NCBI GenBank assembly: GCA_036563975.1
Contig: DATCLK010000025.1
Location: 1-58,959 of the forward strand
Reading direction: 5' to 3'
Source of the DNA: Longimicrobiales bacterium
Lineage (GTDB): Bacteria > Gemmatimonadota > Gemmatimonadetes > Longimicrobiales > RSA9
Length of the DNA: 58,959 nucleotides
Shown one piece after another: positions 7,697 to 30,122 of the stretch. The translations under genes and the position numbers were made by a program. How positions within the stretch are numbered: position 1 is the stretch's first letter; each line of letters opens with the position of its first letter. The notes under the pieces were generated by a model. The model did no database searches. It saw only the letters and a program-made list of their open reading frames with translations, and was not told the DNA's origin.

Positions 7697-9115
7697 TTGT
7701 TGAACTCACCACAACCAGGGCGTACCGAGGGAGAGGTGCGGCGCGACCCGGTCGGGGGACGGGGACAGCGCGAACTGGACATCGCGCGGGAGATCGCACA
7801 GGCGTTCCTGAATGCGACGCGCGCGGTCGAGGTGTACCGTCTCGCGCTGGCGCGTGTCACGCCGCTGGTGGGAGCGACCTTCAGCTCCGTGTTTCTGCGT
7901 GACCCCGCCGAGCCGCAGTTGCTCAAGCTGGCGTGTGCGCAGAACTGGCCGCAGTCCTCGGCCCGCTTCCTCGGCCAGCTCCGGATCCGGGTCGGCCGCG
8001 GGCCGACGGGCCGGGCGGTGGAGGAGGGGCGCCCGATCGCCGTCGAGGATGTGTTCGCGGATCCGGCGCTGCTGGAGTGGTGGGAGCCGGCGCGGGAGCT
8101 CGGGTTCACGTCGTTGATCTCGCTGCCATTGCGGGTGCGGAGCGAGACGGTCGGCGCACTGAGCTTCTACTTCGAGCGGCAGCACCGCTTCGGCGAGGCG
8201 GAGTACGAGCTCCTGGAGCTGGTCGCGAACCAGCTCGCGGCGGCGGCGGAACGGGCGCAGTTGCTGGAGGACCTGCAGCAGGCGAACGCACAGCTCCAGC
8301 GGCAGAACGTGGAGCTGGCGGCGCGCGTCGAGGAAGCGGAGCAGGCGCGGCGGCTGAAGGAAGAGTTCCTGGCCAACATGAGCCACGAGCTGCGGACGCC
8401 GCTCACCGCGATCATGGGGTACGCGTACCTGCTGGCCGAGGGTCATACCGGCCCGCTGACGGAGCAGCAGGTGCAGTGCGTCCGGAAGATCGAGCGTGCG
8501 GGGACGGCGCTGCTCCGGCTGATCAGCGACCTGCTGGATCTCTCGCAACTCAAGCTGGGCCGCGCGCGGCTCGAGATCGCAGTGCACGATGCGGCGGCGC
8601 TCGCACGTCGCGCGGTGGAGATGGCGGGCGAACCTGCGCCGGGCGTCGTCTTCCGGCTGGTCGAAGAGGAGCCGCCGTTGCCCGTGGAGACGGACGCCGA
8701 GAAGGTGGTCAAGATCCTCGAGAACCTGCTGACCAACGCGTTCAAGTTCACGGCGGCAGGCGAGGTGAAGCTGACCGTCCGGCGCGGGCCAGCGGGGAAG
8801 GCGGCGTGGCCCGAGGCGGCGAGCCGCGGCGGGCCGGCAGAGCCGGCGACGGGCGGGTGGGTGGAATGGGCGGTCCAGGATACGGGCATCGGGATCGATG
8901 CCAGGGACCTGCCCATCATTTTCGACGAGTTCCGGCAGGTGGACGGCTCCTCGACGCGCCTGTACGGCGGGACGGGTCTGGGTCTGGCGCTGTCGCAGCG
9001 GCTGGCGCGGCTGCTGGGCGGCGAGATCACGGTGGAGAGCGAGCCGGGCCGCGGCTCCACCTTCACGCTGAGGCTGCCGGCGGCGCCCGTAGCGGCGGGC
9101 ATGCCAACGGCGTGA
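7697..9115 (+). CDS. GAF-domain sensor histidine kinase (cytoplasmic)
   Basis: N-terminal GAF-like region. Coiled linker. H-box EFLANMSHELRTPL. N, G1 and G2 boxes (NLLTNAFKFT, QDTGIGID, GGTGLGLALSQRLARLLGG). Start uncertain: the track start is TTG at 7697, with an alternative GTG at 7736. Confidence 0.8.
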   Translation: MLNSPQPGRTEGEVRRDPVGGRGQRELDIAREIAQAFLNATRAVEVYRLALARVTPLVGATFSSVFLRDPAEPQLLKLACAQNWPQSSARFLGQLRIRVGRGPTGRAVEEGRPIAVEDVFADPALLEWWEPARELGFTSLISLPLRVRSETVGALSFYFERQHRFGEAEYELLELVANQLAAAAERAQLLEDLQQANAQLQRQNVELAARVEEAEQARRLKEEFLANMSHELRTPLTAIMGYAYLLAEGHTGPLTEQQVQCVRKIERAGTALLRLISDLLDLSQLKLGRARLEIAVHDAAALARRAVEMAGEPAPGVVFRLVEEEPPLPVETDAEKVVKILENLLTNAFKFTAAGEVKLTVRRGPAGKAAWPEAASRGGPAEPATGGWVEWAVQDTGIGIDARDLPIIFDEFRQVDGSSTRLYGGTGLGLALSQRLARLLGGEITVESEPGRGSTFTLRLPAAPVAAGMPTA

Positions 9116-9530: not shown

Positions 9531-11441
9531 TCAGTGCGCCGTGGTGACCTCCTCCTGGCCGTCGAAGCGCGCGCGCAAGACGGGCATCGGGCGCGGGCGC
9601 GTCATCGCCTCGGGCGAGAGGATCTCATCCAGCTCTTCGCGAGTCAGCCAGCCCTTCTCCAGTACCAGCTCGTAGACGCCCCTGTCGGTTTCCAGCGCTT
9701 CCTTGGCGACGGCGCTCGCGCGGTCGTACCCGATGAACGGGACGAGCGCGGTGACGATGCCGATGCTGCGCTCGAGCAGGTACCGGATGCGCTCGCGGTT
9801 CGCGGTGATGCCGAGCACGCACCGCTCGCGCAGCACGATGCAGGCCTGCACGAGCATGTCGATGGACTGGAAGATGTTGAAGGCGATGACGGGCTCGAAG
9901 ACGTTGAGCTGGAGCTGGCCGGCCTCGGCGGCCATCGTCACCGTGAGGTCGTTGCCGACGACCTGGTAGCAGACCTGGTTGACCACCTCGGGGATGACCG
10001 GATTGACCTTGCCCGGCATGATGCTGGAGCCCGGCTGCATGGGCGGCAGCGAGATCTCGCCGAGGCCCGCGCGCGGGCCACTGGAGAGCAGGCGGAGATC
10101 GTTGCAGATCTTGGAGAGCTTCGTCGCCACGCGTTTGAGCACGCCCGAGAGCTGGACGAAGGCGCCGGTGTCTGGCGTCGCCTCGACGAGGTCCGGGCTG
10201 GTGACGAGGGGAAGGCCGGTGATCTCGGAGAGGCGCTCGCGGACGAGGGGTGCATAGCGGGGGTCGGTGTTGATCCCCGTGCCGATGGCGGTTGCACCCA
10301 TGTTGATCTCGAGCATGAGCTTCGCCGCGTCCTGCAGCCGCTCGATGTCCTTGCCCAGCGTGACGCCGAAGGCGTGGAACTCCTGGCCGAGGGTCATGGG
10401 CACGGCGTCCTGGAGCTGGGTACGGCCGATCTTGACGATGTCCGCGAACTCGTCGGCCTTTTGCAGGAATGCGTCACGCAGGGCGGCGAGCGCGTCCACG
10501 AGCTCGGCGAGCGCCCAGGTCGCTGCGATCTTGAGCGCCGTGGGATAGACGTCGTTGGTGGATTGCGAGAGGTTGACGTGGTTGTTGGGGTGGACGATGT
10601 GGTACTCGCCGCGGCGCCGGCCGAGCAGCTCGAGCGCGCGATTCGCGATGACTTCGTTGGCGTTCATGTTGGTGGACGTGCCGGCACCGCCCTGGATGAC
10701 GTCCACGACGAACTGATCGTGCAGCGCTCCGCTGCGGATCTCGCGACACGCGGCGATGATGGCGTCGGCGATGCGTTCGTCGAGCAGGCCGAGCTCGCGG
10801 TTGGCAAGGGCGGCGGCCTCCTTGACGGCGGCGAGAGCGTTGATGAGGTGCGGGTACTGCGCGATGGTGATGCCGGTGATGGGGAAGTTCTCGACGGCGC
10901 GCAGCGTCTGGATGCCGTAGTATTCGCGGTCGGGGACCTCGCGTTCTCCGAGCAGGTCCTTCTCGCGCCGCAGCTCGCCGGACAGGTAGACCTGCTCGCG
11001 GCCGGCCAAGCGGGCGTTGGCGGCGCGCAGGCGACTCGCGATGATCTGGGCCGCGGCGATGGCGAGCCGGGCGTAGAGCGCGGGCCGCTCCTCGGCGATG
11101 CGCGTGATCGCCGCGCGAGGAAGCTCGACGGCCTCTACGGGTTCGGTGACGTAAGCGGATGTCGAGTGCGGATAGTCGTCCAGCAGCGTGCCCTCGGCGT
11201 AGGAATCGCCGGGGCCGAGCACCGCGAGGACCCGGTCGTGGCCGCGGTGCCGCTTGCGGATCTCGACCCGGCCGCGGATCAGGATGCCGAATTCGCGGCG
11301 GGGTTGGTTCTCGCGAAAGATGTAAGCGCCGGGTAGGTAGCAGATGACGCGTGCGAGCGAAGCCAGGTACTCGCGGTCCTCGGGCTGCACCTGCCGGCTG
11401 ATCACGTGGTTGCGGAGGGTCTTGAGGATGACGTCCTGCAT
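9531..11441 (-). CDS. aspA: cyclic-nucleotide-binding domain fused to class II aspartate ammonia-lyase (aspartase)
   Basis: Residues 1-150 carry a CAP-family cNMP-binding fold (GILIRGRVEI...LGPGDSYAEGTLLDDYPHSTSAYV). The remainder is aspartase/fumarase class II with the signature GSSIMPGKVNPVIPEVVNQ, plus KDLLGEREVP...YYGIQTLRAVENFPI. ATG at 11439-11441. Confidence 0.85.
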   Translation of the reverse strand: MQDVILKTLRNHVISRQVQPEDREYLASLARVICYLPGAYIFRENQPRREFGILIRGRVEIRKRHRGHDRVLAVLGPGDSYAEGTLLDDYPHSTSAYVTEPVEAVELPRAAITRIAEERPALYARLAIAAAQIIASRLRAANARLAGREQVYLSGELRREKDLLGEREVPDREYYGIQTLRAVENFPITGITIAQYPHLINALAAVKEAAALANRELGLLDERIADAIIAACREIRSGALHDQFVVDVIQGGAGTSTNMNANEVIANRALELLGRRRGEYHIVHPNNHVNLSQSTNDVYPTALKIAATWALAELVDALAALRDAFLQKADEFADIVKIGRTQLQDAVPMTLGQEFHAFGVTLGKDIERLQDAAKLMLEINMGATAIGTGINTDPRYAPLVRERLSEITGLPLVTSPDLVEATPDTGAFVQLSGVLKRVATKLSKICNDLRLLSSGPRAGLGEISLPPMQPGSSIMPGKVNPVIPEVVNQVCYQVVGNDLTVTMAAEAGQLQLNVFEPVIAFNIFQSIDMLVQACIVLRERCVLGITANRERIRYLLERSIGIVTALVPFIGYDRASAVAKEALETDRGVYELVLEKGWLTREELDEILSPEAMTRPRPMPVLRARFDGQEEVTTAH

Positions 11442-11657
11442 GGGATCCTGTTCGTGCGGAAACGAGGGTGTCGTGGCAGACCGCCGGGGCGGGGAAACCG
11501 CCTGCTGCTTCGTGGAGGGAAATTAGCCGCAGCGCCATCGGCGCGCCACAACGGACAGGTGAAGCGCAAGGCGCGAGCGCGGAGCGTCAGCGCGCGAGCC
11601 GGGGCGGCGGGTTCGATCCGCGGCGGCGCAGACGCGGACGGGCGCGGCGCAGCGGGC

Positions 11658-12395
11658 TCACCGCGCGCCCGACATCCGCGGGCGGGGCGGGATCCGCTTG
11701 CGGACCGCCGGCTCGCTCGGCGCGCCATCGTGCGGGGCCGCGAGGCGGGCGCGGACGTGATCGAGCAGCTGCTCGGGGCGACGGAGGCCCAGGATGAGCT
11801 CGTCGTTGACGTAGATCGCGGGCACGTGTCCGGGGGCCAGATCGCGGGCGGCGAGCGCGTCCTCCTCGACCTCACGCGCGATGGCCGGGTCGGAGAGGCA
11901 GCGGGCGAAGCCGGCGGTGTCGAGGCCGAGCGCGGCAGCGTACACGATGAACTTCGGCTCGGGCGGCTCGCCCTGGCTCCATTCGGCGACGCGCTCCGCG
12001 AGGAGGCGATGCATGTCCCACTGCTTGCCGTCACGTGCTGCGCAGTAGGAGGCGCGCGCGGCGGCGGGCCCGCGGCGATGCGCGCGGAGCGGCGCGTGGA
12101 TGTGGACGTAGCGGAGCCGGCCTTCCGCCGCCCAGTGCCGTAGCCGGGCGCCGGCCTCTTCATCGAGCCAGCGGCACGCGGCGCACTGGAAGTCGCTGAA
12201 GATACGGACGACGACGGCGGCATCGGCGGGCCCGACCGCGACGCCGGCGTGGCGCGTCCGTTCGGCGATAGCCTGCCCGATACGCATCGTGCGGATGGAT
12301 GGCTCGCGGGTCACGGCGAACGTCGCTGCGAGCATCGCTGCTGCGCCGGCTGCGATGATGACGAGGATGGCGGTCGTGAACGCGCGGGTGCTCAT
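11658..12395 (-). CDS. membrane-anchored DsbA/thioredoxin-fold thiol:disulfide oxidoreductase
   Basis: Start MSTRAFTTAILVIIAAGAAAMLAATFAV, a TM anchor. CxxC active site in FSDFQCAACRWL. DsbA-like C-terminus. ATG at 12393-12395 chosen over the upstream extension. Confidence 0.75.
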   Translation of the reverse strand: MSTRAFTTAILVIIAAGAAAMLAATFAVTREPSIRTMRIGQAIAERTRHAGVAVGPADAAVVVRIFSDFQCAACRWLDEEAGARLRHWAAEGRLRYVHIHAPLRAHRRGPAAARASYCAARDGKQWDMHRLLAERVAEWSQGEPPEPKFIVYAAALGLDTAGFARCLSDPAIAREVEEDALAARDLAPGHVPAIYVNDELILGLRRPEQLLDHVRARLAAPHDGAPSEPAVRKRIPPRPRMSGAR

Positions 12396-12477
12396 GCGGG
12401 TGTCGCTCCTGGCAGCGAAGTGCGCGGCGCCTGCCGCTGTGGCAAGCCCAGCAGGGCCTGCCACAGCGGCTCACGGA

Positions 12478-12765
12478 TCACCCCAGCGACAGCGAGGAGC
12501 TGCACGCGACGTCGATTCGGTCGCCATTCGACCCGATATAGACGCCCACCTGCGTCGAGAGGGTCATCCGCACGGTCACGATCGAGGTGCCCACCCAGAC
12601 GGGAGCGTTGAACTGCTCCCGGACTTCGTAGCTCCCGACGAGCGTCCACGTCCCCCCGCCGCTGCCGAGCGAGACCTCCGACGGGCAGTCCGCACGAGCG
12701 CTGGTGGCGAGCGCGAGGACGAGCGCGAGGGCGGACACGGCGGCTGGCAATCTGGAACGGCGCAT
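12478..12765 (-). CDS. small secreted 2-Cys protein, paralog A (95 aa precursor)
   Basis: Signal peptide MRRSRLPAAVSALALVLALATSARA followed immediately by DC. The mature part is about 70 aa, Gly/Ser/Thr/Val-rich, with a second Cys near the C-terminus (DVACSSS). ATG at 12763-12765. Confidence 0.6.
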   Translation of the reverse strand: MRRSRLPAAVSALALVLALATSARADCPSEVSLGSGGGTWTLVGSYEVREQFNAPVWVGTSIVTVRMTLSTQVGVYIGSNGDRIDVACSSSLSLG

Positions 12766-12818
12766 GGGAAACCCCCCGGTATGGCCCGCAGGTGCGGGCA
12801 CGTGTAGGTCGCGCCCGC

Positions 12819-13002
12819 GAGCCGCACCGGGTACTGCACGGTTCAGGGCTCGATTCGCTGCCGGTGCGGCCGGTCCGGGGAGGTGCGGGAGCCGGCCGGG
12901 ATGCATCCGGTTCATCTGGTGGCCACGCGGTCCGGCGTCGTCGTCGAGCCGGGCCGGCGCGTCTCGCGGCGGCCGTGGAGGAGTCACGCGGCGTGCCGGG
13001 AA
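12819..13002 (-). promoter_or_regulatory. conserved non-coding leader, copy A (about 180 nt, hairpin with CCUCC-containing loop in mRNA sense)
   Basis: Near-identical to 14860..15041. About 90% identity by eye over the central 140 nt, with one indel and a short divergent patch. Same orientation and same gap of about 55 nt to the downstream start codon. Contains the stem CGGCCGG/CCGGCCG at 12867-12873 and 12892-12898 around an 18-nt loop. Confidence 0.5.
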
Positions 13003-13362
13003 GCGAGGGCGCCGCCGGTCGTCCGTAACTCGTTGTGGCGCTTGGACGCGAGCGCCGTCCTCGCCCGGTGGAGCCATGCGCTGTGGGGACAGGCGGCGCG
13101 CATTGGCCAGCCGGTTCCGGACACTTCCGGTCAACGCGACTTCGGCAGGCCGCCATGCGTCGTGGAAGTGGATCGAGGCGGTGAGCGAGCGCGGCTCCGC
13201 CGCGGGCGTGCGGCGTTGCCGGCGCAAGAAAGAACAGCGCCTGCACGCGCGGCGCTGCGCAGCGCGTGCAGGCATGATTGCGGCCCGATCAGCCACGCCG
13301 CAGCGGGGGCGGTGGCATTCGGCTCCTGAGCCGCTGTCGGCGCAGGAACGCGCGCGGCCGGC

Positions 13363-14403
13363 TCAGCCGCGCCGGGCTTCCTCGAGGGCGAAGGCGTGGA
13401 GCCCGTCGTTCGTCACGAAGTACAGGACGTTGTCGCGCACGGTCATACTGCTGGCCCGGTGCGCGGCGTCCCATGGCCCGCTCTCGGCAGGGACACGCAC
13501 CTCGCGCAGCGTGTAGGTTGCAGGATCGATCAGGACGGCGACGACGTCTCCCGAGCTCAGTGCGATGAGCAATTGGCCGTCTGCCGTGGTCGTGAAGTCC
13601 TTGACCAGCGGCGTGTGGAGGACCCTGGTCCCCTGGCGGGCAAAGGCCTGGATCGCTTCCTGATGGCGCTGACGGATCGGGTCCAGCAGCCGGTCGGGCA
13701 GGCGGGCGGTCCGGCGTACCTCGCCCGCCTGGTCGAGGCGGAAGAGCACGCCCTCCCGGCCGTCGAAGACGTGGAATGCGCCGTCGGGCGTACGGACGAC
13801 GAGGAACTCGTCGCGCAGGCTCGCCCGGCCGGCGTCGCCTGCCGCCTCCAGCTCGAGCGCCGGGGGACGAGGGCCCCAGGGATGGCGGTCGTCTTCGGGC
13901 GTGATGACGGTGAAGTAGGCATCCGGGGAGGCGTGGGCGACGTGATAGACGGAGCCATCGGGGCCGACGGCGAAGCTGCGCAGCAACTCGCGGAGCTGCA
14001 CCTCGCGCACCAGTTCGCCATCGGGGCGGAAGAAGGAGACGCGCTGATTCGTCAGGTCGCCGACGACGATGAGGCCGTTCCAGCTCACGAGGCCGAAGGG
14101 GGCCTGGAACTCTCCGGGCCCCGCGCCGCTGCGGCCGAAACGGTGCAGCAGGTCGAGCCGCGTGTCGAAGAGCGCGATGCGGTCGTCGTCGACGTCGGAG
14201 ACGACGAGGGTGTCGCCGAGCAGTCGGATGCGAAGCGGCCTGACGAGCGGGAACGAGTCGTCCTCGATGGCGGCGACGCGTCTGGCGAGGAGCTCGCGAA
14301 CGACGAGCGGCGGCCCGCCGATGCCGGTGGTGAGTTCGTCACGGGAGTCGAGTGCGCTGCAGGCCGCGAGGAGTGGCAGGGCGAGGAGGATGCGGGTGCG
14401 CAT
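13363..14403 (-). CDS. lipoprotein with NHL/beta-propeller-type repeats
   Basis: Start MRTRILLALPLLAACSALDS, with lipobox LAAC. Repeated motifs of the form DGxLxVxD / GxGPGEFxxPxGL typical of NHL/TolB-like propeller blades. This is the true gene inside the artefactual 1011-aa track ORF 13363..16398. Confidence 0.7.
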   Translation of the reverse strand: MRTRILLALPLLAACSALDSRDELTTGIGGPPLVVRELLARRVAAIEDDSFPLVRPLRIRLLGDTLVVSDVDDDRIALFDTRLDLLHRFGRSGAGPGEFQAPFGLVSWNGLIVVGDLTNQRVSFFRPDGELVREVQLRELLRSFAVGPDGSVYHVAHASPDAYFTVITPEDDRHPWGPRPPALELEAAGDAGRASLRDEFLVVRTPDGAFHVFDGREGVLFRLDQAGEVRRTARLPDRLLDPIRQRHQEAIQAFARQGTRVLHTPLVKDFTTTADGQLLIALSSGDVVAVLIDPATYTLREVRVPAESGPWDAAHRASSMTVRDNVLYFVTNDGLHAFALEEARRG

Positions 14404-14471
14404 GGTGCCTCGTCGGGTTGGGGTCTGATGCTGTCGGGCGGCCGGTCGAGCCGGCCGCCCGAGCCGCACGA

Positions 14472-14807
14472 TCAGCGCCGGCTGTAGTTCCTGCAGTCCA
14501 CCTCCCAGATCTCGCCGTTGCTCATCTGATAGTGGCCGATCTGATACGTGTACGTGATCGTGTTGGTCCGGGTGTACGAGCCGGAGCCCGAGGCGCCGGC
14601 CCCGCCCGGCCCGCTGACGCCTGCGCTGAAGGTCACCGTCTGGGTGACGGTCTCGGTCACCGTCGTGGTCCCGAGCAGGGTGCCGGTATTGGGCGAACTG
14701 TTGATGCCGGTGGAGATGTAGGGAGCGCAGTCCGCCCATGCCCGGGCGGCGACAGCGAGGACGAGGGCGAGGGCGGGCGCGACGGTGCGCAGAGTGGTGC
14801 GATTCAT
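14472..14807 (-). CDS. small secreted 2-Cys protein, paralog B (111 aa precursor)
   Basis: Signal peptide MNRTTLRTVAPALALVLAVAARAWA followed by DC. Thr/Gly/Ser-rich mature part (TTTVTETVTQTVTF...) with a C-terminal Cys (EVDCRNY). Same architecture as 12478..12765. ATG at 14805-14807. Confidence 0.6.
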   Translation of the reverse strand: MNRTTLRTVAPALALVLAVAARAWADCAPYISTGINSSPNTGTLLGTTTVTETVTQTVTFSAGVSGPGGAGASGSGSYTRTNTITYTYQIGHYQMSNGEIWEVDCRNYSRR

Positions 14808-14859
14808 GGGACGCCTCCCGATGGGGCCCGCGAGGCGGGCGTTGGTCGTTTCTGCCATC

Positions 14860-15041
14860 GAGCCGCACCGGGCAGAGGAGTCCGGGCTCGTGCGGCTGCC
14901 GGCTGCGGCCGGTCCGGGGAGGTGCGGGAGCCGGCCGGGATGCATCCGGTTCGTCTGGTGGCCACGCGGTCCGGCGTCGTCGTCGACCCGGGCCGGCGCG
15001 TCTCGCGGCGTGCGTGTCGAAGTCACGCGGCGTGCCGGGAG
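14860..15041 (-). promoter_or_regulatory. conserved non-coding leader, copy B
   Basis: See copy A. Lies between the sigma54 activator stop (15140) and the paralog B start (14807). The same hairpin is present at 14908-14914 / 14933-14939 (CGGCCGG / CCGGCCG). Confidence 0.5.
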
Positions 15042-15139
15042 GCCACACGGGCGCGCTGATTCGTGCAAGGGCCCATGACTCAAGGAATTGATGGCGGCTC
15101 GTGCGTTTTGGGGCCATAGCTCGACGGGACACGCGGTGG

Positions 15140-16309
15140 TCAGCGGCCGGCCGCTTCCGGCTGCTTGTGGGCATCGAGGCCGAGGTGCCGGAGCTTGAGG
15201 CGAAGCGTGTTGCGGGCCATGCCGAGGGCGGCGGCAGCGCGGGTCTTGTTGCCGCGGCAGAGGCGGAGTGCTTCCTCGATGCGGCGGCGCTCTTCGTCCG
15301 CAGAGCCGTAGAAGGAGTAGCGGACGCGGGGGAGTATGCGATGCGCGCGTGCGCCGTCGGTGTCCGGCAGGCCCGTGGCGGCGGTGCCGGGTGGCAGCGC
15401 GGCGTAGGGCGCGAGGTGCTGAGGTTGAGGCGCGAGGTGCTCGTGGATCGCGGGCGCGTGACCATGGGGCGGTGGCGGGCTGGTGAGGGTGGTGGGGAGG
15501 TGTGCGACGCCGATGGTGGCGGAGTCGCAAGCGAGGACGGCGGCCTCGACGGCGTGGGCGAGCTCGCGGATGTTGCCGGGCCAGGTGTAGGCGTGCATGC
15601 GTGCGAGTGCAGCAGGAGAGAAGGCGCGGGCGGGCCTCTGGTAGCGCGCGGCGTAGTGATCGAGGAAGTGACGCGCGAGGAACTCGAGGTCGCCGTCGCG
15701 GTCGCGGAGCGGGGGCAGGCGGTAGGAGAGCACGAGCAGGCGATGGTAGAGATCGCGGCGGAAGCGGCGTTCGGCGACGGCGCGCTCGAGGTCCACGCCG
15801 GCGGCGGCGATGATGCGGACGTCCACGCGCAGCGTCCGTTCGCCGCCGAGGCGGCGGATCTCTCCGTCCTCGAGCGCGGTGAGGAGCTTGGCCTGGAGCG
15901 AAAGCGGCAGCTCTCCGACCTCGTCCAGGAAGAGTGTGCCGGCGCTGGCCTGCTCGAAGAGGCCGCGGTGGGCCTGGTGGGCGCCGGTGAACGCGCCGCG
16001 GGTGTGGCCGAAGAACTCGCTTTCGAAGAGGGTTTCCGGCACCCCGGCGCAATTGATGGCGACGAAGGGTGCGCGGGCGCGGCGCGAGCATTCGTGGATG
16101 GCGCGGGCGAGGAGGCCCTTGCCGGTTCCGGTCTCGCCGGTGAGGAGGACGGGGGCGTCGACGGCCGCGGCGCGGCGGCCGAACTCACGGAGCGCGGCGG
16201 CGGCGGCGCTGCGTCCCAGGATGCGATCGAGGGCGTCCACGGGTCGGTTCGGGGAATCGGTTTGCGGGTGTCGCGGCGCAGGATGGCGTGGCGGGCTGGG
16301 CGAGGCCAT
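15140..16309 (-). CDS. sigma54-dependent transcriptional activator (AAA+ EBP with Fis-type HTH) lacking an N-terminal sensory domain
   Basis: Walker [15 protein letters not shown] motif ([12 protein letters not shown]). Arginine-finger region. C-terminal HTH ([26 protein letters not shown]). The AAA+ core begins about 25 aa after the chosen ATG (16307-16309). The further upstream in-frame sequence is Pro/Arg junk. Confidence 0.85.
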
Positions 16310-16668
16310 AGGTGGACGGGTCGGTGCGCCGCCCGGGGGCTCGTGGGTGCCGACGCGCGGTGCGGGACGTGCGAGCGGCTCGGGCCGTCGCGAACCACGG
16401 GCGGCCGAGCGCCGGGGAGAACGCCCGCGACGGCAGATCGGGCAAGGGTGGCGCTGTCCCCGCCTCAAGGTTAGGTTTGGGGCGAATCGTTTTCATTGAA
16501 TCTGGAGGTCGGACGGGCGCCCGGAGGGGTCGCCCGGCACGAAGATAGATCGGGGCGCCGTCGGCGCGCGTCGGCCTCGAGCGAGGCGATTCGCGCGGCG
16601 GGGCGGCGGGCCCATTGTTCCGGGCGGTGGGGGAGCTGCCCGGTGGCGCGAACCAGGAGATCGTCGAG

Positions 16669-18438
16669 ATGGCGAGAGAGACGAGCTCGGTGAGTGGTAG
16701 CGGGGCGCCGGTCACGGCGCCGAGCGCGGCAGCGGTTGCGCCGGCGGAGCGCACCTTCCTCGGTCATCCGCGCGGGTTGTCGACGCTGTTCTTCACGGAG
16801 ATGTGGGAGCGGTTCAGCTACTACGGGATGCGGGCGCTGCTGGCGCTGTTCATGACGACAGCGGCGGTGGGCGCCAACCCGGGGCTGGGCTTCAGCGAGG
16901 CGACGATGGGCGCGGTGTACGGGCTGTACACCTCGATGGTGTACCTGCTGACGCTGCCGGGCGGCTGGATTGCGGACAACCTGTGGGGCCAGCGCAAGGC
17001 GGTGTTCGTTGGGGGCTGCATCATCGCGCTGGGCCATTTCACGCTGGCGGCGCCGCTGGTGGGTGCGCCGGACGTGCCGTCGTTCTTCCTGGGGCTGCTG
17101 TTCGTGGCGGTCGGCACCGGGCTCCTGAAGGCGAACGTCTCGACCATGGTGGGCGATCTCTACCCGCCCCCGGGAGAAGCGGCGACGGAGAAAGAGCGGC
17201 AGGAGTGGGCGGCGAAGCGGGACTCGGCGTTCTCGATCTTCTACATGGGGATCAACATCGGGGCGATGCTGGGCCCGTTCATCTGCAGCACGTTGGGCGA
17301 GGGGTTCGACTGGGGGTTCCTGCGGTACGAGGGGAGCTGGCATCTGGGCTTCTCGCTGGCGGGTTTCGGGATGGTGCTGGGCCTGATCCAGTACAAGCGT
17401 GGTGACCGGTACCTCGGCAGTGCGGGCTACCTGAAGACGAACGATCCGGAGCACGTGTTGCGGCGGCGCGCCCGGAACTTCTACGTCACCACGGCTGCGG
17501 TGGTGGCGGCGGCCGCGCTGATGGTCTACCTGCTGGTCTCGGGCGCCCTGGGCATCACGCTCACGGACTTCGCGGCGTGGGTGGGGTACGGCATCCTGCT
17601 CGTCGCGCTCCTGTTCTTCACGTACCTGATCTTCGACGTGTGGTGGGCTGCCGGGCTGCTCGCGCTGTTCGGCGTGTCGACGTTCCTGGTCCCGGGTCAG
17701 GGGACGGCCGCCGGGCAGCAGGCGATCGGCGTGACGCTGGGCGCGTTCGTGCTGATGAACCTGGTGCTGCTGCTGGTGCGGCGGGGCGGGGTCAGCGTGG
17801 AGAAGAAGCGGCTGATGGTGGCCTTCTGGCTGTTCCTGCTGGCGGCGACGTTCTGGGCAGGGTTCGAGCAGGCCGGCTCGTCGATGAACCTGTTCGCGCG
17901 GGACCTCACGGACCGCACGCTGTTCGGCTGGGAGATCCCGGCGGGCTGGCTCCAGAACGTGAACCCGTTCTTCATCATCGTGCTGGCGCCCGTGTTCGGC
18001 GTGCTGTGGACGTGGCTGGCGCACCGTAACCGGAATCCGTCGATCCCGATGAAGTTCGCGCTCGGGGTGCTGGGCCTCGCCGCCGGCATGTTCGTGCTGG
18101 CATGGGGCGCGTCTTACGCCTCGGCGACGAACCGGGTGTCAATGGCGTGGCTGGTCACGACCTACTTCCTGTTCACGGTCGGCGAGCTGGCGCTCTCGCC
18201 GGTCGGGCTCTCCTCGATGACGAAGCTGGCGCCGCCGGGGCGGCTGGGGCAGATGATGGGCGTGTGGTTCATCGCGTCGGCGCTGGGCAACCTGTTCGCG
18301 GGTTTGGTGGCGGGCTCGCTCGAGACGCTGTCGCCGAGCGAGCTCTTCATGAGGATCGGGCTGGTCGCAGCCGCGGTGGGCGCGCTGGCGCTGGTGCTGA
18401 GCCCGGTGGTGAACCGGTTGACGGGAGGGATCCGCTGA
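16669..18438 (+). CDS. POT/PTR2-family proton-dependent di/tripeptide transporter
   Basis: Canonical POT signature FLGHPRGLSTLFFTEMWERFSYYGMRALL, with 12 or more TM segments. AGGAG RBS 10 nt upstream of the ATG at 16669. The alternative upstream ATG at 16615 lacks an RBS. Confidence 0.9.
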   Translation: MARETSSVSGSGAPVTAPSAAAVAPAERTFLGHPRGLSTLFFTEMWERFSYYGMRALLALFMTTAAVGANPGLGFSEATMGAVYGLYTSMVYLLTLPGGWIADNLWGQRKAVFVGGCIIALGHFTLAAPLVGAPDVPSFFLGLLFVAVGTGLLKANVSTMVGDLYPPPGEAATEKERQEWAAKRDSAFSIFYMGINIGAMLGPFICSTLGEGFDWGFLRYEGSWHLGFSLAGFGMVLGLIQYKRGDRYLGSAGYLKTNDPEHVLRRRARNFYVTTAAVVAAAALMVYLLVSGALGITLTDFAAWVGYGILLVALLFFTYLIFDVWWAAGLLALFGVSTFLVPGQGTAAGQQAIGVTLGAFVLMNLVLLLVRRGGVSVEKKRLMVAFWLFLLAATFWAGFEQAGSSMNLFARDLTDRTLFGWEIPAGWLQNVNPFFIIVLAPVFGVLWTWLAHRNRNPSIPMKFALGVLGLAAGMFVLAWGASYASATNRVSMAWLVTTYFLFTVGELALSPVGLSSMTKLAPPGRLGQMMGVWFIASALGNLFAGLVAGSLETLSPSELFMRIGLVAAAVGALALVLSPVVNRLTGGIR

Positions 18439-18492: not shown

Positions 18493-18545
18493 CGCCCCCC
18501 GTTCCGTCGCGGGCGTCCCGTTGACGGGGCGGGGGGTGCTTTGCA
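18493..18545 (+). terminator. GC-rich hairpin followed by TGCTTTGC after the POT transporter gene
   Basis: CCCCCCG...CGGGGGG outer stem with an inner CCGTC/GACGG stem, then a short U-rich tract. Lies 55 nt downstream of the stop at 18438. Confidence 0.35.
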
Positions 18546-18600
18546 TGATTGCGCGGCCGCAGCGCGGATCGGCGGCCTGCAGGCGAGCCCAGGAGGTCTG

Positions 18601-18894
18601 ATGCTAGCGAACGGCCAGATCAAGGTCGTGGCGCAGGAGGTGGGGCGGGCGGCGGCCGAGCGGATCCGCAACGCCGGGGATCAGTACGATCGCGTGCAGT
18701 TGTGGGAGGTGGTGCGGTACGCATCGCGCGCGATCGAGGCAGTCGTAGAGATGGAGACGCAGGACCTGTCGGCATCGGACCGGTGCCGGCGGGCGCGCTA
18801 CCTGGTGAGCGAGCTCGAATGCGCGCTGGAGGCGGCGCGCAAGGCGAAGGCGGTGCTGGACTGGACGGCGCAGCGGCAGCGTGACGCTCCCTAG
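18601..18894 (+). CDS. hypothetical cytoplasmic protein (98 aa), first gene of a three-gene overlapping operon
   Basis: AGGAGG RBS 5 nt upstream of the ATG at 18601. Protein-like composition (MLANGQIKVVAQEVGRAAAERIRNAGDQYDRVQLWEVVRYASRAIEAVVEMETQDLSASDRCRRARYLVSELECALEAARKAKAVLDWTAQRQRDAP). The 3' end overlaps the next gene start. The track start at 18541 is TTG. Confidence 0.5.
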   Translation: MLANGQIKVVAQEVGRAAAERIRNAGDQYDRVQLWEVVRYASRAIEAVVEMETQDLSASDRCRRARYLVSELECALEAARKAKAVLDWTAQRQRDAP

Positions 18895-19624
18895 GACCGA
18901 CGAGTCAGACGCCGCTGATTCGCGACGGCGCCGGTACGCGACGCATCCGGCGGCGCTCGTCGCCTGGGTCCTGTTCGCGGCCGTCCTGCTCGTGAGCAGC
19001 CGGCTGCGGTTGGAGCAGGAGGCGGTGCGTGAGGCGCTTGCGGGCCTCGGGCCGGCAGCTCCGCTGGGGTTCGTGCTCGCGGAAGCGGCGCAGGTGGTGT
19101 TCTGGCCGATTCCGGGCCAGCCGCTGGAAATTCCGGGCGGCTGGCTTTTCGGTTTTGTTGCGGGAACGGCGCTGGGGACGGTGGGCGCGGTGGCGGGCTC
19201 GCTGGTGGCGTTCGAGCTGGGGCGGCGTTACGGCCGGCCGTGGGTGGAGCGGCACATCCCGGTGCGCGTCCGGGAGCGGTTCGCGGCGCGCCTGGGCCGC
19301 GGGCAGCGGGCCGGGTGGGTCGTCTTCTGGTTGATGATGGTGCCGGCGTTCCCACGGGACCCGCTGTGCTACCTGGCCGGATTGACGCGTCTTACACTTG
19401 CACGGTTCGGGCTGATCGCGCTCGTGGGGCGGCCGGTCGGCCTGGCGCCGTGGGTGGCGTTGGGCGGGGAGGGTGTGGAGTTGGGGCTGAGAATCCAGGT
19501 GATCGCGCTCGCGATCCCGGCTGTGGTGTGGGCCGGCCACCGGGCGTACACGCGCCTTCCCGGCCGGTTGGCGGGCAACGGAGGGGCACAGCAACGCGAT
19601 CCAACGGGGGAAGGGAATGCGTAA
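18881..19624 (+). CDS. DedA / TVP38-TMEM64 family membrane protein
   Basis: Family hallmark VVFWPIPGQPLEIPGGWLFG plus several TM helices. GTG start at 18881 is uncertain. Overlaps both neighbours. Confidence 0.75.
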   Translation: MTLPRTDESDAADSRRRRYATHPAALVAWVLFAAVLLVSSRLRLEQEAVREALAGLGPAAPLGFVLAEAAQVVFWPIPGQPLEIPGGWLFGFVAGTALGTVGAVAGSLVAFELGRRYGRPWVERHIPVRVRERFAARLGRGQRAGWVVFWLMMVPAFPRDPLCYLAGLTRLTLARFGLIALVGRPVGLAPWVALGGEGVELGLRIQVIALAIPAVVWAGHRAYTRLPGRLAGNGGAQQRDPTGEGNA

Positions 19625-20612
19625 GCTGGCGACGCTGAAGCGACTCTGGGACGACCGCGCGCTCTACTGCCAGCTCATCGTCACGCGGCGTTGCAACCTG
19701 GCCTGCGGCTACTGCAACGAGTTCGACCAGGTGTCGAAGCCCGTTCCGTACGAGGTGCTGGTCGAGCGGATGGACCACCTGGTCGATGTGTTGGGCGTGA
19801 CGATCATGGATTTCCTGGGTGGCGAGCCGCTGTTGCATCCGCGGATCGCGGATCTCGTCGCGTACGCGAAGCGCAAGGGTTGCTGGACGAACATCATCAC
19901 CAACGGCTTGCTGCTGAGCGCGGAGCTGGTCGAAGCGCTGAACCGCGCAGGCCTCGACTCGATGTGCGTCTCGATCGACCGCATCCATCCGACGGGCTTC
20001 ACGCACAAGGGGTTGAAGCCTCTGCGGCGGAAGCTCGCGGCGCTGCGCCGGAGCGCGCGGTTCCAGGTGGAGGTCAACACGGTGCTGTGCGAGGAGACGC
20101 TGGACGAGTTCGAGGAGCTGGTGACGGAACTGAAGCGCATGGGCTTCCCGGTGCGGTGCGGCGTGCGGCACTACGAGGGCCGGCTGGAGCTGACCGACCG
20201 GATCCGGGAGAAGCTGGAGTGGTTCCACGGGCATTTCCGGCACTGGCGGATCGCGCCGATGATGGACCTGCACCGGGCGCGCATGGAAGGGCGGGCGCCG
20301 GAGTGGAAGTGCACGGGCGGTTACAAGTTCCTGTACGTGGATGAGTTCGGCACGGTGAAGGCCTGCTCGCAGGTGCCGCTGGAGCAGCCGCGGAACGTGT
20401 TGCGGATGACGGTGGCGGACCTGAAGGCGAACGACCGACACAAGCCGTGCGAGAAGGACTGTGGCGTGAGCTGCGTGATCCAGACGTCGCTGGTGACGGC
20501 GAACCCGCTGCGCTACGCAGCGCGTTGCGTGCAGCATCTTCTCGCGACGCGCGGGACGGGCGTGGAGCTGGGCGGGTTCAAGCGCGCCTCCAAGGTAGAG
20601 GCGGCGGTGTAG
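19617..20612 (+). CDS. radical SAM enzyme with Cys-rich C-terminal (SPASM/twitch-like) region
   Basis: CxxxCxxC in IVTRRCNLACGYCNEFD. Glycine-rich SAM-binding segment (FLGGEPLL). C-terminal cysteines WKCTGG...VKACSQ...HKPCEKDCGVSCV. ATG at 19617 with a purine-rich RBS, overlapping the DedA 3' end by 8 nt. Confidence 0.85.
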   Translation: MRKLATLKRLWDDRALYCQLIVTRRCNLACGYCNEFDQVSKPVPYEVLVERMDHLVDVLGVTIMDFLGGEPLLHPRIADLVAYAKRKGCWTNIITNGLLLSAELVEALNRAGLDSMCVSIDRIHPTGFTHKGLKPLRRKLAALRRSARFQVEVNTVLCEETLDEFEELVTELKRMGFPVRCGVRHYEGRLELTDRIREKLEWFHGHFRHWRIAPMMDLHRARMEGRAPEWKCTGGYKFLYVDEFGTVKACSQVPLEQPRNVLRMTVADLKANDRHKPCEKDCGVSCVIQTSLVTANPLRYAARCVQHLLATRGTGVELGGFKRASKVEAAV

Positions 20613-28769: not shown

Positions 28770-29825
28770 TCACGCCGCGGCATCCCGGGGCGTGCGGCGC
28801 GCCCCGCGCCGGTGCGCCCCGGCAGCGTGGCGCTCCAGGAAGCGGACGAGCGCGGCCTCCTCCGGGTAATACGCGCCCACCAGGGCGGCCGGGTCCGGCT
28901 GCCCGCCGTCTTGCAGGAGCGGCTGGATGGTGCGGCCGCGCCGGTACTCCTCCAGCACGGCGGGGTGGATGTAGGCGCTGCGGCAGATGGCCGGAGTGTT
29001 GCCGAGCTCGTGCGCGACGAGGCGGCAGCAGAGGGCGATGTGGCGCTGGGCCTCGCGCTGGGAGCGCGGGGGCCCCAGCTCGGCGAGCACGACCGCGGCG
29101 CGCACCGTGCCGCCGAACGTGCGCATGTCCTTGGAGGTGCAGCGTTCGCCGGCGACGGCGCGCAGGTAGCGGTTCACGGCGCGCGCGGTGACGTTGCGGA
29201 TCCGGTCGCCCTCGCGGTAACGGAACAGGCGGCTGCCCGGCAGCGCGAGCAGGTCGCGGATGATGGCGACGAGTGGCGTGTCCGCGATGACCTGGCGCTG
29301 GTCTTTCCGCCGCTTCCCGGGGTAGGTGAAGATCAGCGTGTTGCCCTGCACGCGGACGTGGCTCTTTCGCAGCGTGCAGATCCCGAACGTCCGGTTCTGC
29401 ACGGCGTAGCGCTCGCTGCCGATGCGGAAGAACCCGCGGCTGGTGAGCCGCACGACGGTCGCCAGCACCTTCAGCCGGTCCAGTTCGGGGCGGGCGAGGT
29501 GGCGGTCGGTCGCGGCGCGGATGCGTGGCAGCATGCGCGCGTAGCGCAGCACGCGGCCCCACTTGCGCGCCGCGCGCCACGCCACGTAGCGCGGATGGTA
29601 GATGTACTGCTTCCGGCCCGCCGCGTCGTAGCCCCACGCCTGGACCTTGTGATCGGGGTCAGGGGAGACGCGCACGCCGGTCCAGGCGGGCGGGATGGCC
29701 AGCGACCGGATCCTCCCTTCCACCTCACCGGCCGGCACGGGCCGGCCGTCCGCATCCACGAACCGGAAGCCCTCGGCCGGCGAGCCGACGCGGAGCCACC
29801 AGTCCCGCTCCCGCAGAGCTGCCAT
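28770..29825 (-). CDS. type IB DNA topoisomerase (bacterial/poxvirus-type TopIB)
   Basis: Start MAALRERDWWLRVGS. Blocks YIYHPRYVAWRAARKWGRV, RYREGDR, HIALCCRLVAHELGNTPAICRSAYIHP resembling TopIB. A catalytic Tyr is plausible in SAYIHP. The 71 upstream in-frame codons are junk. Confidence 0.75.
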   Translation of the reverse strand: MAALRERDWWLRVGSPAEGFRFVDADGRPVPAGEVEGRIRSLAIPPAWTGVRVSPDPDHKVQAWGYDAAGRKQYIYHPRYVAWRAARKWGRVLRYARMLPRIRAATDRHLARPELDRLKVLATVVRLTSRGFFRIGSERYAVQNRTFGICTLRKSHVRVQGNTLIFTYPGKRRKDQRQVIADTPLVAIIRDLLALPGSRLFRYREGDRIRNVTARAVNRYLRAVAGERCTSKDMRTFGGTVRAAVVLAELGPPRSQREAQRHIALCCRLVAHELGNTPAICRSAYIHPAVLEEYRRGRTIQPLLQDGGQPDPAALVGAYYPEEAALVRFLERHAAGAHRRGARRTPRDAAA

Positions 29826-30122
29826 CGGGGATGGGGGCGGTTCACGGATTGTGCCAGCCCCTGCCCTTCCGCCCTTGCCCCGGGCCGGGGCGCCCCGCCG
29901 CCGCGCACCCCGGCTCCGGGCGTGGGCGGGGGCGCACGCTGCAGCCCGGTTCGCGTGCGCCGACAGATTCGGCGCGGAGACGGACGGCGTTCTCGTGCCT
30001 TGCCGCTCCATCGACCTCGCAGGCCGCCGCGTGCGCAACGGCGGAGTGCTTGACAGCGCGCGGCTCGGGGCGACAACTACGAGGACGACGGCACGTCGAT
30101 CCCCCGCGAATGGGAGGCGCCC

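Follow-up and report, generated by a model that had tools for sequence, protein, structure and literature searches.

What might be the function of five consecutive genes that bring together a transcriptional activator, two small secreted proteins, a lipoprotein and a thiol:disulfide oxidoreductase? The question is raised by a locus in contig DATCLK010000025.1 of assembly GCA_036563975.1, from which a stretch of 58,959 nucleotides (nt) was analysed; this stretch, hereafter the window, has a G+C content of 72%, and its proteins are recorded at NCBI under a Longimicrobiales (Gemmatimonadota) metagenome-assembled genome. An earlier note, made from the letters of the sequence, had placed the five genes on the minus strand, and open reading frames (ORFs) are found at exactly those positions. 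In the order of their reading they encode a sigma-54 enhancer-binding protein (EBP), small protein B, an NHL-repeat beta-propeller lipoprotein, small protein A and a DsbA-like enzyme (Table 1). We report here that this cassette is real, conserved (so far only in Gemmatimonadota) and itself undescribed in the libraries searched, and that, by the profile and library comparisons described below, its small proteins constitute a new family, one that is undescribed in the libraries searched.

The small proteins, their partners and the spread of the cassette

A direct BLASTP comparison of small proteins A and B aligns their signal peptides only (E 0.12). Aligned together with their homologues, the two match from end to end and share the invariant residues C27, L44, G91, Y93, G98, V103 and C105; on this alignment they are true paralogues, with the common architecture that the earlier note had read in them. 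A word-indexed search for homologues returned only 4 and 3 relatives of the two proteins, and an exhaustive profile search of 1.84 billion representatives recovered 66 cluster representatives at 50% identity. Family members are nearly all 84-165 amino acids (aa) long and carry a signal peptide, one match being a protein of 1011 aa. Both cysteines are present in every listed family sequence shorter than 200 aa, and the pair is invariant in 45 of the 45 aligned sequences. N-terminally, the family consensus comprises the signal peptide, the motif C-A-x-[YF]-[IV]-[ST]-x-G...G-x-L-x-G and a strand; C-terminally, a variable Gly-rich or aromatic tip is followed by a further strand and the motif T-Y-x-V-G-x-Y-x-M-x-D-G-x4-[VI]-[DR]-C-x-x-Y. 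No Pfam family scores above its cut-off for A, B or the 45 members scanned, nor does any NCBIfam model for A and B of the window. Likewise, a search of the PDB with the family profile gave no match, PADLOC holds no family for these proteins, and the Foldseek matches of the small-protein model are not significant. Thus, the suspicion of an undescribed family with a conserved cysteine pair, voiced in the earlier note, holds up.

Membership in a curated bacteriocin, pilin or lipoprotein family was considered and rejected, given that no Pfam or NCBIfam model matches and that no lipobox precedes the cysteine. In A and B, the first cysteine is the +2 residue after an AxA cleavage site and is preceded by Asp, and the residue ahead of it is Asp, Glu or Pro in most family members. 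This rules out lipoproteins, and we accordingly regard the small proteins as substrates of signal peptidase I.

An AF2 model built on the 45-sequence alignment (pLDDT 84) places strands at residues 40-63 and 75-95, and predicts a very long beta-hairpin projecting from a small head, the head being the conserved part of the protein. The predicted strands of 20-24 residues each would extend about 7-8 nm by standard beta-strand geometry. Across 68 members, one face of the hairpin is 62-85% Ser/Thr, forming a Ser/Thr ladder, and the opposite face alternates Val/Ile with Glu/Arg; the abundance of Glu/Arg there argues against a lipid-facing surface. Small protein B has a long predicted hairpin with a Gly/Ser-rich tip, whereas one subgroup has aromatic tips; hence, the tip appears to be the variable part and is possibly the one contacting a target. 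Such aromatic tips (WSYKFFGG, WSFMNFGG, GGWMGFGG) were observed in the family members P0035, P0065, P0069, P0075 and P0077 and in the small proteins of the retrieved loci L018 and L033.

The lipoprotein shows only sub-threshold Pfam matches, including one to the NHL model. A phmmer search against the PDB matches it to the NHL domain of TRIM71 (five stretches, E 3.6e-20), and with a profile built from seven orthologues the E-value falls to 1.7e-33; by these matches it is a genuine NHL beta-propeller. The lipobox cysteine is its sole cysteine in the window and is present in all orthologues, which otherwise have no invariant His or Cys. This pattern suggests a role in binding rather than catalysis, excludes the propeller as a client of the DsbA-like enzyme, and leaves the small proteins as the sole disulfide clients encoded in the cassette. 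The enzyme itself scores above cut-off for both Thioredoxin_4 (E 8.5e-15, 55.8 bits against 23.2) and DSBA (E 8.8e-11, 42.4 bits against 25.6), and its translation reveals a CAAC motif and one N-terminal hydrophobic anchor.

The activator contains Sigma54_activat (E 3e-64), AAA_lid_14 and HTH_8 domains and a GAFTGA motif, the only one found in the 59-kb window, where no second EBP was seen. Sigma54_activat begins at residue 30 of 389, and at residue 10 in the orthologues of 318 and 324 aa from L018 and L035; there is hence no sensory domain. The annotated length of relatives, 354-366 aa, leaves the start codon in doubt by about 30 codons. An AAA+ activation domain and HTH_8 without an N-terminal sensor place the protein in class Ic. 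Members of this class, PspF among them, have no sensor domain, and sigma-54 with its EBPs is near-universal in diderms containing lipopolysaccharide, where it is tied to genes for the cell exterior (PMC3162934). The annotations in the earlier note of a sensor-less EBP, an NHL lipoprotein and a membrane-anchored CxxC oxidoreductase are all borne out by these results. The RtcR_PspF2 model of PADLOC aligns to the AAA+ part of the EBP (E 1e-99); as only this generic core is matched, we rejected the notion of the cassette being a defence system.

To survey the spread of the cassette, a degenerate DNA pattern of the C-terminal motif was scanned over one genome per species for 185,579 species. It gave 20 matches, 17 of which encode true family members, and these (17/17) are all from Gemmatimonadota, namely Longimicrobiales, Palauibacter and Gemmatimonadales. 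The small gene is followed by the NHL lipoprotein gene in 14 of the 17 loci. The order small gene-NHL-DsbA-like occurs in L018, L020, L025, L027, L028, L033 and L035, where the flanks are unrelated housekeeping genes (gyrB, recN, HU, infA, PPIase), and L016 has both the small and the lipoprotein gene amid rearranged surroundings. Near relatives of the window (L001, L010, L013, L039, L040 and others) have the full order EBP-B-NHL-A-DsbA along with the whole 20-kb neighbourhood; such extensive synteny means that gene order in the window clade carries little weight. The EBP gene lies upstream on the same strand in this clade, and is convergent and downstream of dsbA in L018 and L035; a sensor-less EBP stands beside the module in three different arrangements. 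The search of other genomes thereby upholds the earlier claims of a recurrent module, spanning Gemmatimonadota orders in differing surroundings, and of its link to the EBP. The pairing of two small genes, also claimed, does not hold throughout, a second and shorter paralogue after the propeller being seen only in the window clade and in Palauibacter: at its core the unit comprises a single small gene and the NHL lipoprotein gene, with the DsbA-like gene next in most loci.

In the sponge-associated Candidatus Palauibacter (L019:1545-3502, L021:4024-5947), gyrB has directly downstream of it a long-hairpin small gene, then the NHL gene and then a short-hairpin small gene, with tandem GTTGAT repeats upstream in place of the GGCAC motif described below. 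The placing of a long paralogue ahead of the propeller and a short one behind it is therefore not peculiar to the window clade. The neighbours of L001, L010 and L013 with Pfam annotation include no PspA-type gene.

Upstream elements, leaders and hairpins

A conserved upstream element, with the consensus GTCCC-N7-9-[C/T]ATGG(C)C, is found in about half of the small-gene upstream regions, against a background of ~0.016 per 400 nt that consists mostly of these same sites, an enrichment of about 30-fold. The window has a single strict match, the copy before gene A being a looser one. The spacing between this element and a downstream GGCAC motif is constant in every A and B leader and also in the loci L016, L018, L033 and L035, the 5' untranslated regions (UTRs) of the latter four being otherwise unrelated to the window leader. 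An IHF-like site (ATCAATTCCTTG) is present in B leaders and conserved in most of them, as judged by eye. The best sigma-54-like site of each upstream region is [T/C]GGCAC-N6-TG[A/T], situated at -203 to -247, or at -137 in short A leaders. A -24 box of the TGGCAC type precedes both window genes and recurs in L016, L018 (as TGGCAT), L033 and L035; its GG is in place and its spacing to the -12 position is correct. The EBP with its GAFTGA motif adjoins the small genes, and the conserved candidate site lies ~90 nt upstream of the promoter-like motif at a fixed distance. From these features we infer that the upstream part of the leader has the architecture of a sigma-54/EBP promoter with an atypical -12. 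Natural single-base variation at -11/-12 has been documented for paralogous RpoN (PMC3162934).

A canonical sigma-54 promoter was rejected, as matches to TGGCAC-N5-TTGC with up to three mismatches are not enriched (430 found against 480 expected). We also considered the promoter palindrome of the window clade (GGCACGC-C-GCGTGAC) as a dimeric operator; it is probably incidental, because the distant G1 loci retain GGCAC-N6-TG without it. Neither sigma-70 promoters nor U-tract terminators were found in the locus on the relevant strand. In L016, L018, L033 and L035, another box, CCCATTCC, is conserved 20-21 nt upstream of TGGCAC; these loci also have conserved UTR blocks (CATCGAGGCCAC; CTGASCGACTCCGCGCGATG) unrelated to the window leader core, and TCCCAT...CAT boxes of a similar kind occur at -100 to -130 in L025/L027 and L030/L031. 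Elsewhere in the window, TGGCACAATCCGTGAA (29841-29856, minus strand) is patterned in the same non-canonical -24/-12-like way and precedes by 16 nt the ATG of a gene (28770-29825) for a bacterial topoisomerase IB with Topoisom_I and Top1B_N_bact domains; a single match of this type is expected by chance in 24% of shuffles.

The two leaders share a direct repeat (12865-13004 and 14904-15043) of 140 nt at 94% identity, within a weaker similarity that spans ~330 nt at 82%, and a 33-nt core string has exactly two copies in the window against 0 in shuffles. The earlier note, which spoke of near-identical leaders of about 180 nt, was essentially right about the repeat and slightly generous about its length. 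As the 94% block lies downstream of the GGCAC-N6-TG[A/T] motif, it would be part of the 5'UTR if that motif is a promoter; the predicted 5'UTR measures 203-247 nt, with only 137 nt for A leaders from the sister sublineage. The 3' end of the leader has an invariant GCCCGC-N3-4-GCGGGC hairpin, then GGGAGG, then the ATG. Each leader extends the frame of its small gene without a stop, and the resulting peptides diverge completely after indels; since the lengths of these indels, whether between copies or between orthologues, are not divisible by three, the leader is non-coding, and we rejected it as coding sequence. A mobile repeat of the miniature inverted-repeat transposable element or repetitive extragenic palindromic kind was likewise rejected, there being two window copies only and 7 of 7 metagenome matches to the core lying at the same type of locus. 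No Rfam family matches at E <=1 over positions 11000-17000.

Over the first 100 nt of the core, identity within a genome is 97.9% and 96.9%, versus 91.7-95.8% between orthologues (window, L001, L005, L007), and the 3' part of the core groups by gene type; the higher identity within genomes indicates gene conversion or co-evolution, in other words concerted evolution of part of the 5'UTR. RNAalifold returns a GC-rich structure, whose helix 8 (CGGCCGG-C-N-CC ... GG-N'-CCGGCCG) has UA, GC, AU and GU at one pair and a switch between CG and GC at a second, the remaining pairs being invariant or changed on one side; the structural support for the leader is suggestive. The A leaders of the sister sublineage (L010:11480-11770, L013:6320-6611, L039, L040) are ~100 nt shorter and lack the repeat core, and keep the upstream element, GGCAC-N6-TGAC, the GCGACGACGTCGC palindrome and the hairpin before the Shine-Dalgarno. 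Their lack of the core implies that it was copied from B to A in the sublineage of the window only.

Immediately after the stop codon of the small gene, a perfect GC hairpin of 11-17 bp without a U tract was observed in six contexts, and the hairpin sequences are unrelated between lineages. Such recurrence in unrelated sequence points to a conserved role as an attenuator or stabiliser. We would read the layout as that of an operon making its small product in excess of the accessory proteins.

Table 1. Coordinates of the cassette genes and associated features; positions refer to the window unless a locus number is given
Feature	Position	Strand	Remarks
EBP gene	15140..16309	-	sensor-less PspF-type class Ic sigma-54 enhancer-binding protein; Pfam, NCBIfam, GAFTGA
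Small protein B gene, 111 aa	14472..14807	-	Sec signal peptide AWA|DC, Cys27 and Cys105
NHL-repeat beta-propeller lipoprotein gene, 346 aa	13363..14403	-	LAAC lipobox
Small protein A gene, 95 aa	12478..12765	-	paralogue of B, shorter hairpin, same Cys pair
Membrane-anchored DsbA-like thiol:disulfide oxidoreductase gene	11658..12395	-	Thioredoxin_4/DSBA, CAAC active site; adjoins the propeller elsewhere too
Conserved upstream element of gene B, GTGTCCCGTCGAGCTATGGCCCC	15109..15131	-	candidate EBP site ~90 nt upstream of the -24 motif
IHF-like site of B, ATCAATTCCTTGA	15080..15092	-	matches WATCAANNNNTTR except for the first base; between upstream element and promoter-like motif
Sigma-54-like promoter candidate of B, CGGCACGCCGCGTGA	15023..15037	-	perfect -24 GGCAC; GA not GC at -12
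Long 5'UTR/leader of B	14808..15022	-	140-nt repeat copy (14904-15043), covarying hairpin (~14906-14938), hairpin before the Shine-Dalgarno
GCCCGC-N3-GCGGGC hairpin of B leader	14826-14840	-	just upstream of the GGGAGG Shine-Dalgarno
Perfect GC hairpin after the stop of gene B	14436..14460	-	-35.8 kcal/mol, z -3.3; no U tract; candidate attenuator/3' stabiliser
Conserved upstream element of gene A, TGTCCCCACAGCGCATGGCTCC	13070..13091	-	from leader alignment
Sigma-54-like promoter candidate of A, CGGCACGCCGCGTGA	12984..12998	-	from motif scan
Long 5'UTR/leader of A	12766..12983	-	140-nt repeat copy (12865-13004)
Perfect 17-bp GC hairpin after the stop of gene A	12433..12470	-	-54.2 kcal/mol, z -4.2
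Post-gene hairpins elsewhere	L003:981-1065, L016:4618-4697, L018:4257-4314, L027:4746-4811		z -2.3 to -4.2, including the window

As for the surroundings in the window, a class II fumarase/aspartase-type lyase with an N-terminal cyclic-nucleotide-binding domain (9531-11441, minus strand) is adjoined by a GAF histidine kinase (7697-9115, plus strand), and both are syntenic with the cassette in close relatives only. On the other side (18541-20612, plus strand), three ORFs run into one another by a few bases and encode a product of 117 aa, a membrane protein with a DedA/VTT domain and a radical SAM protein; this trio is kept together in L001, L010 and L013, with a TPR-like protein of 757 aa beyond it.

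A proposed mechanism and its alternatives

We posit, with a probability of about one half, that the cassette serves the EBP- and sigma-54-driven production of Sec-exported hairpin proteins that are stapled from N- to C-terminus by the DsbA-like enzyme and act together with the NHL lipoprotein. The EBP, to judge from the motifs, would bind GTCCC-N7-9-CATGGCC ~90 bp upstream of a sigma-54-type promoter. One such promoter unit per small gene would yield two predicted transcripts, one for B and the NHL lipoprotein and the other for A and the DsbA-like enzyme. The long structured 5'UTR may tune translation, and, owing to the strong GC hairpin behind each small gene, more would be made of the small protein than of the accessory protein encoded next. 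The small proteins, with their evident signal peptides, would be exported and cut after AxA, whereupon the enzyme, anchored in the inner membrane, would join the cysteine at +2 to the one near the C-terminus and thereby lock the head; such a DsbA-made disulfide is suggested by the invariance of the cysteine pair and the conserved linkage of the genes. The NHL lipoprotein, by analogy with the cleft between thioredoxin (Trx)-like and NHL domains in NHLRC2 and SOQ1, could be the docking or assembly partner of the conserved head. The disulfide, the dependence on sigma-54 and the contact between propeller and hairpin are thus what we infer.

Several observations weigh against this proposal. GC at -12, which nearly all known sigma-54 promoters have, is absent from the candidates of the window clade and the G1 loci, which read TGA or TGT (i.e. 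GA or GT) there; L020 and L028, with TGGTCC-N5-ATGC at the canonical GG-N10-GC spacing, are the only loci that have it. No TGGCAC-N5-TTGC with up to two mismatches occurs in the leaders, and the scan for a canonical -24/-12 promoter before the small genes, by which the earlier hint of sigma-54 control was to be checked, turned up none, the candidate having a perfect -24 and a -12 that reads GT or GA. [quoted passage not shown] No EBP was seen within the 8-kb stretch in 5 of the 7 distant loci with the small-NHL-DsbA order, and in Palauibacter neither an EBP nor a DsbA gene adjoins. The DsbA-like gene could be that of the cell's general oxidase, merely located here. One long hairpin on its own would probably be unstable, and the covariation in the leader amounts to two base pairs among close relatives.

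Some of these points could also mean that the neighbourhood is not a functional unit, the DsbA-like protein being a general periplasmic oxidase, the EBP controlling other genes and shared ancestry accounting for the rest. The 20-kb synteny throughout the window clade, the Palauibacter loci and the want of a canonical promoter are all in keeping with this. We nevertheless consider it very unlikely, since the small-NHL-DsbA order survives where the other neighbours all differ, the EBP adjoins in three orientations or positions, the same two upstream motifs recur where the small proteins share only ~35-45% identity, and the window yielded only one strict match to the upstream element, the copy at gene A being looser, and only one EBP. 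The leader could alternatively be mainly a cis-regulatory RNA, whether riboswitch- or thermosensor-like or a target of a protein or small RNA, that gates small-gene translation, with GGCAC belonging to this RNA or to the operator of another regulator and not to a sigma-54 promoter. The leader core surpasses the coding sequence in conservation, B leader cores being 68-96% identical among orthologues versus 48-81% for the B proteins; one position of helix 8 shows three Watson-Crick pair types and G-U; a CCUCCCC in a hairpin loop is complementary to the GGGAGG Shine-Dalgarno, and the invariant GCCCGC/GCGGGC hairpin lies 12 nt before it; and within a genome the two copies have become homogenised over their 5' 100 nt. 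On the other hand, Rfam offers no counterpart, the covariation is limited to the two pairs, and neither the sister sublineage in its A leaders nor the distant G1 loci in theirs have the core; these leaders keep GGCAC-N6-TG and the upstream element. A regulatory RNA would moreover be compatible with, and not exclusive of, transcription by sigma-54; we hold the proposal to be unlikely.

Turning to the products, the small proteins might be secreted, bacteriocin-like toxins whose hairpins form an oligomeric beta-barrel pore, with the NHL protein providing immunity or assembly and the DsbA-like protein maturation. The top Foldseek matches are dominated by pore-state toxin stems (CDTb, lysenin, iota Ib, aerolysin, VCC), some members have aromatic hairpin tips such as WSYKFFGG, and the layout of small precursor gene, attenuator-like hairpin and accessory genes resembles that of bacteriocin operons. 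Against this, the face opposite the Thr-bearing one is Glu/Arg-rich family-wide and does not look lipid-facing, and the vicinity holds no conserved gene for a transporter, a protease or an immunity-type function. A patchy distribution is usual for accessory toxins, whereas each retrieved locus has a single cassette set with housekeeping genes such as gyrB and HU around it, and the cassette is known from two orders at least (Longimicrobiales and Gemmatimonadales); we deem a pore improbable to a marked degree. We give still less credence to a signal-receptor pair, in which the NHL lipoprotein would sense the oxidised small proteins as extracytoplasmic signals, much as NHL propellers are the sensor domains of PknD, and the signal would feed back on the EBP. 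The NHL propeller is a known ligand-sensor fold, with PknD-derived NHL domains among the PDB matches; the EBP has no sensor of its own; and the small-protein head is conserved, with the propeller lacking invariant residues of a catalytic type. Yet no locus encodes a transmembrane component that would link the lipoprotein to the cytoplasmic EBP, and the attenuator-like hairpins suggest bulk production, which would be unusual for a signal. Each of these four alternatives thus faces specific contrary evidence.

Gemmatimonadota are abundant in soils, lakes and sponges, and their envelope biology is almost unstudied. The cassette links a new small-protein family to a simple regulator as well as to a DsbA-type enzyme and an NHL propeller, both of them partners of well-understood types. 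It thereby renders testable the control exerted by a sensor-less EBP, the tolerance or preference of the sigma-54 of this phylum for a non-GC -12, and the action of a Trx-fold/NHL pair on a defined client. The last also matters for the essential human NHLRC2 and the plant SOQ1. Should the small proteins merely be lineage-specific structural proteins with a folding helper, the value of our findings would be limited to the annotation of a new family.

Relation to known systems

On the side of regulation, the EBP resembles the class Ic EBPs typified by PspF in having only an AAA+ domain with GAFTGA and HTH_8 (class definition in PMC3162934). As in the sigma-54 envelope-stress operons of PspF, its apparent targets are envelope proteins, and the upstream element is followed by an IHF-like site and then by a motif of the -24/-12 type. 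It differs from them in that no locus shows a PspA-like partner, the -12 reads TG[A/T] rather than TTGC, and the targets are unrelated to pspABCDE; its NCBIfam score is 264 against a PspF cut-off of 444 bits. On the side of disulfide formation, dedicated Dsb enzymes are encoded beside their clients in assT-dsbL-dsbI of E. coli and Campylobacter and, as bdbA/bdbB, in the sublancin operon, and the arylsulfate sulfotransferase cluster even places a beta-propeller protein beside a DsbA-type gene, as the cassette does. However, the propeller of the cassette has no cysteine beyond the lipobox and cannot be the client; the clients would instead be hairpins of 70-90 residues. No DsbB, DsbI or VKOR partner is encoded near the cassette.

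In NHLRC2 and SOQ1, the Trx-like domain forms one functional cleft with the NHL domain, and SOQ1 has a small beta-stranded cysteine domain with which the Trx-like one may exchange disulfides (PMC6107167; bioRxiv 10.1101/2021.03.16.435614). The cassette has the same three ingredients, a Trx fold, an NHL propeller and a small beta domain, outside the cytoplasm. In contrast to these proteins, it distributes them over three separate genes, and its oxidoreductase is of the DsbA/Thioredoxin_4 type with CAAC, not TlpA-like with CC(I/V)NC (PMC6107167). Further, its small proteins are predicted to be long hairpins rather than an n-DsbD-like barrel. The 60 PDB matches listed for the propeller profile include neither NHLRC2 nor SOQ1; the cassette falls outside their family, and the likeness is one of analogy. 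By that analogy, the DsbA-like enzyme and the NHL lipoprotein might be a single platform for catalysis and binding that writes, and possibly reverses, the N-to-C disulfide of its client, as a periplasmic three-gene counterpart of NHLRC2 and SOQ1, with the disulfide switching the hairpin client from an inactive to an assembly-competent state under sigma-54 control. We regard this joint claim as distinctly doubtful; if true, it would provide a bacterial Trx/NHL system with an identifiable client.

The small proteins themselves recall the stems of beta-pore-forming toxins in their very long hairpin, strictly alternating residues and Ser/Thr-lined face, and differ from them in that the opposite face is charged, not hydrophobic, and in the lack of a significant fold or sequence match. 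Their two-row Thr lattice is also reminiscent of insect antifreeze proteins; unlike Thr-array ice-binding proteins, they have no beta-solenoid. Across all these comparisons, the cassette combines known kinds of parts in a new way.

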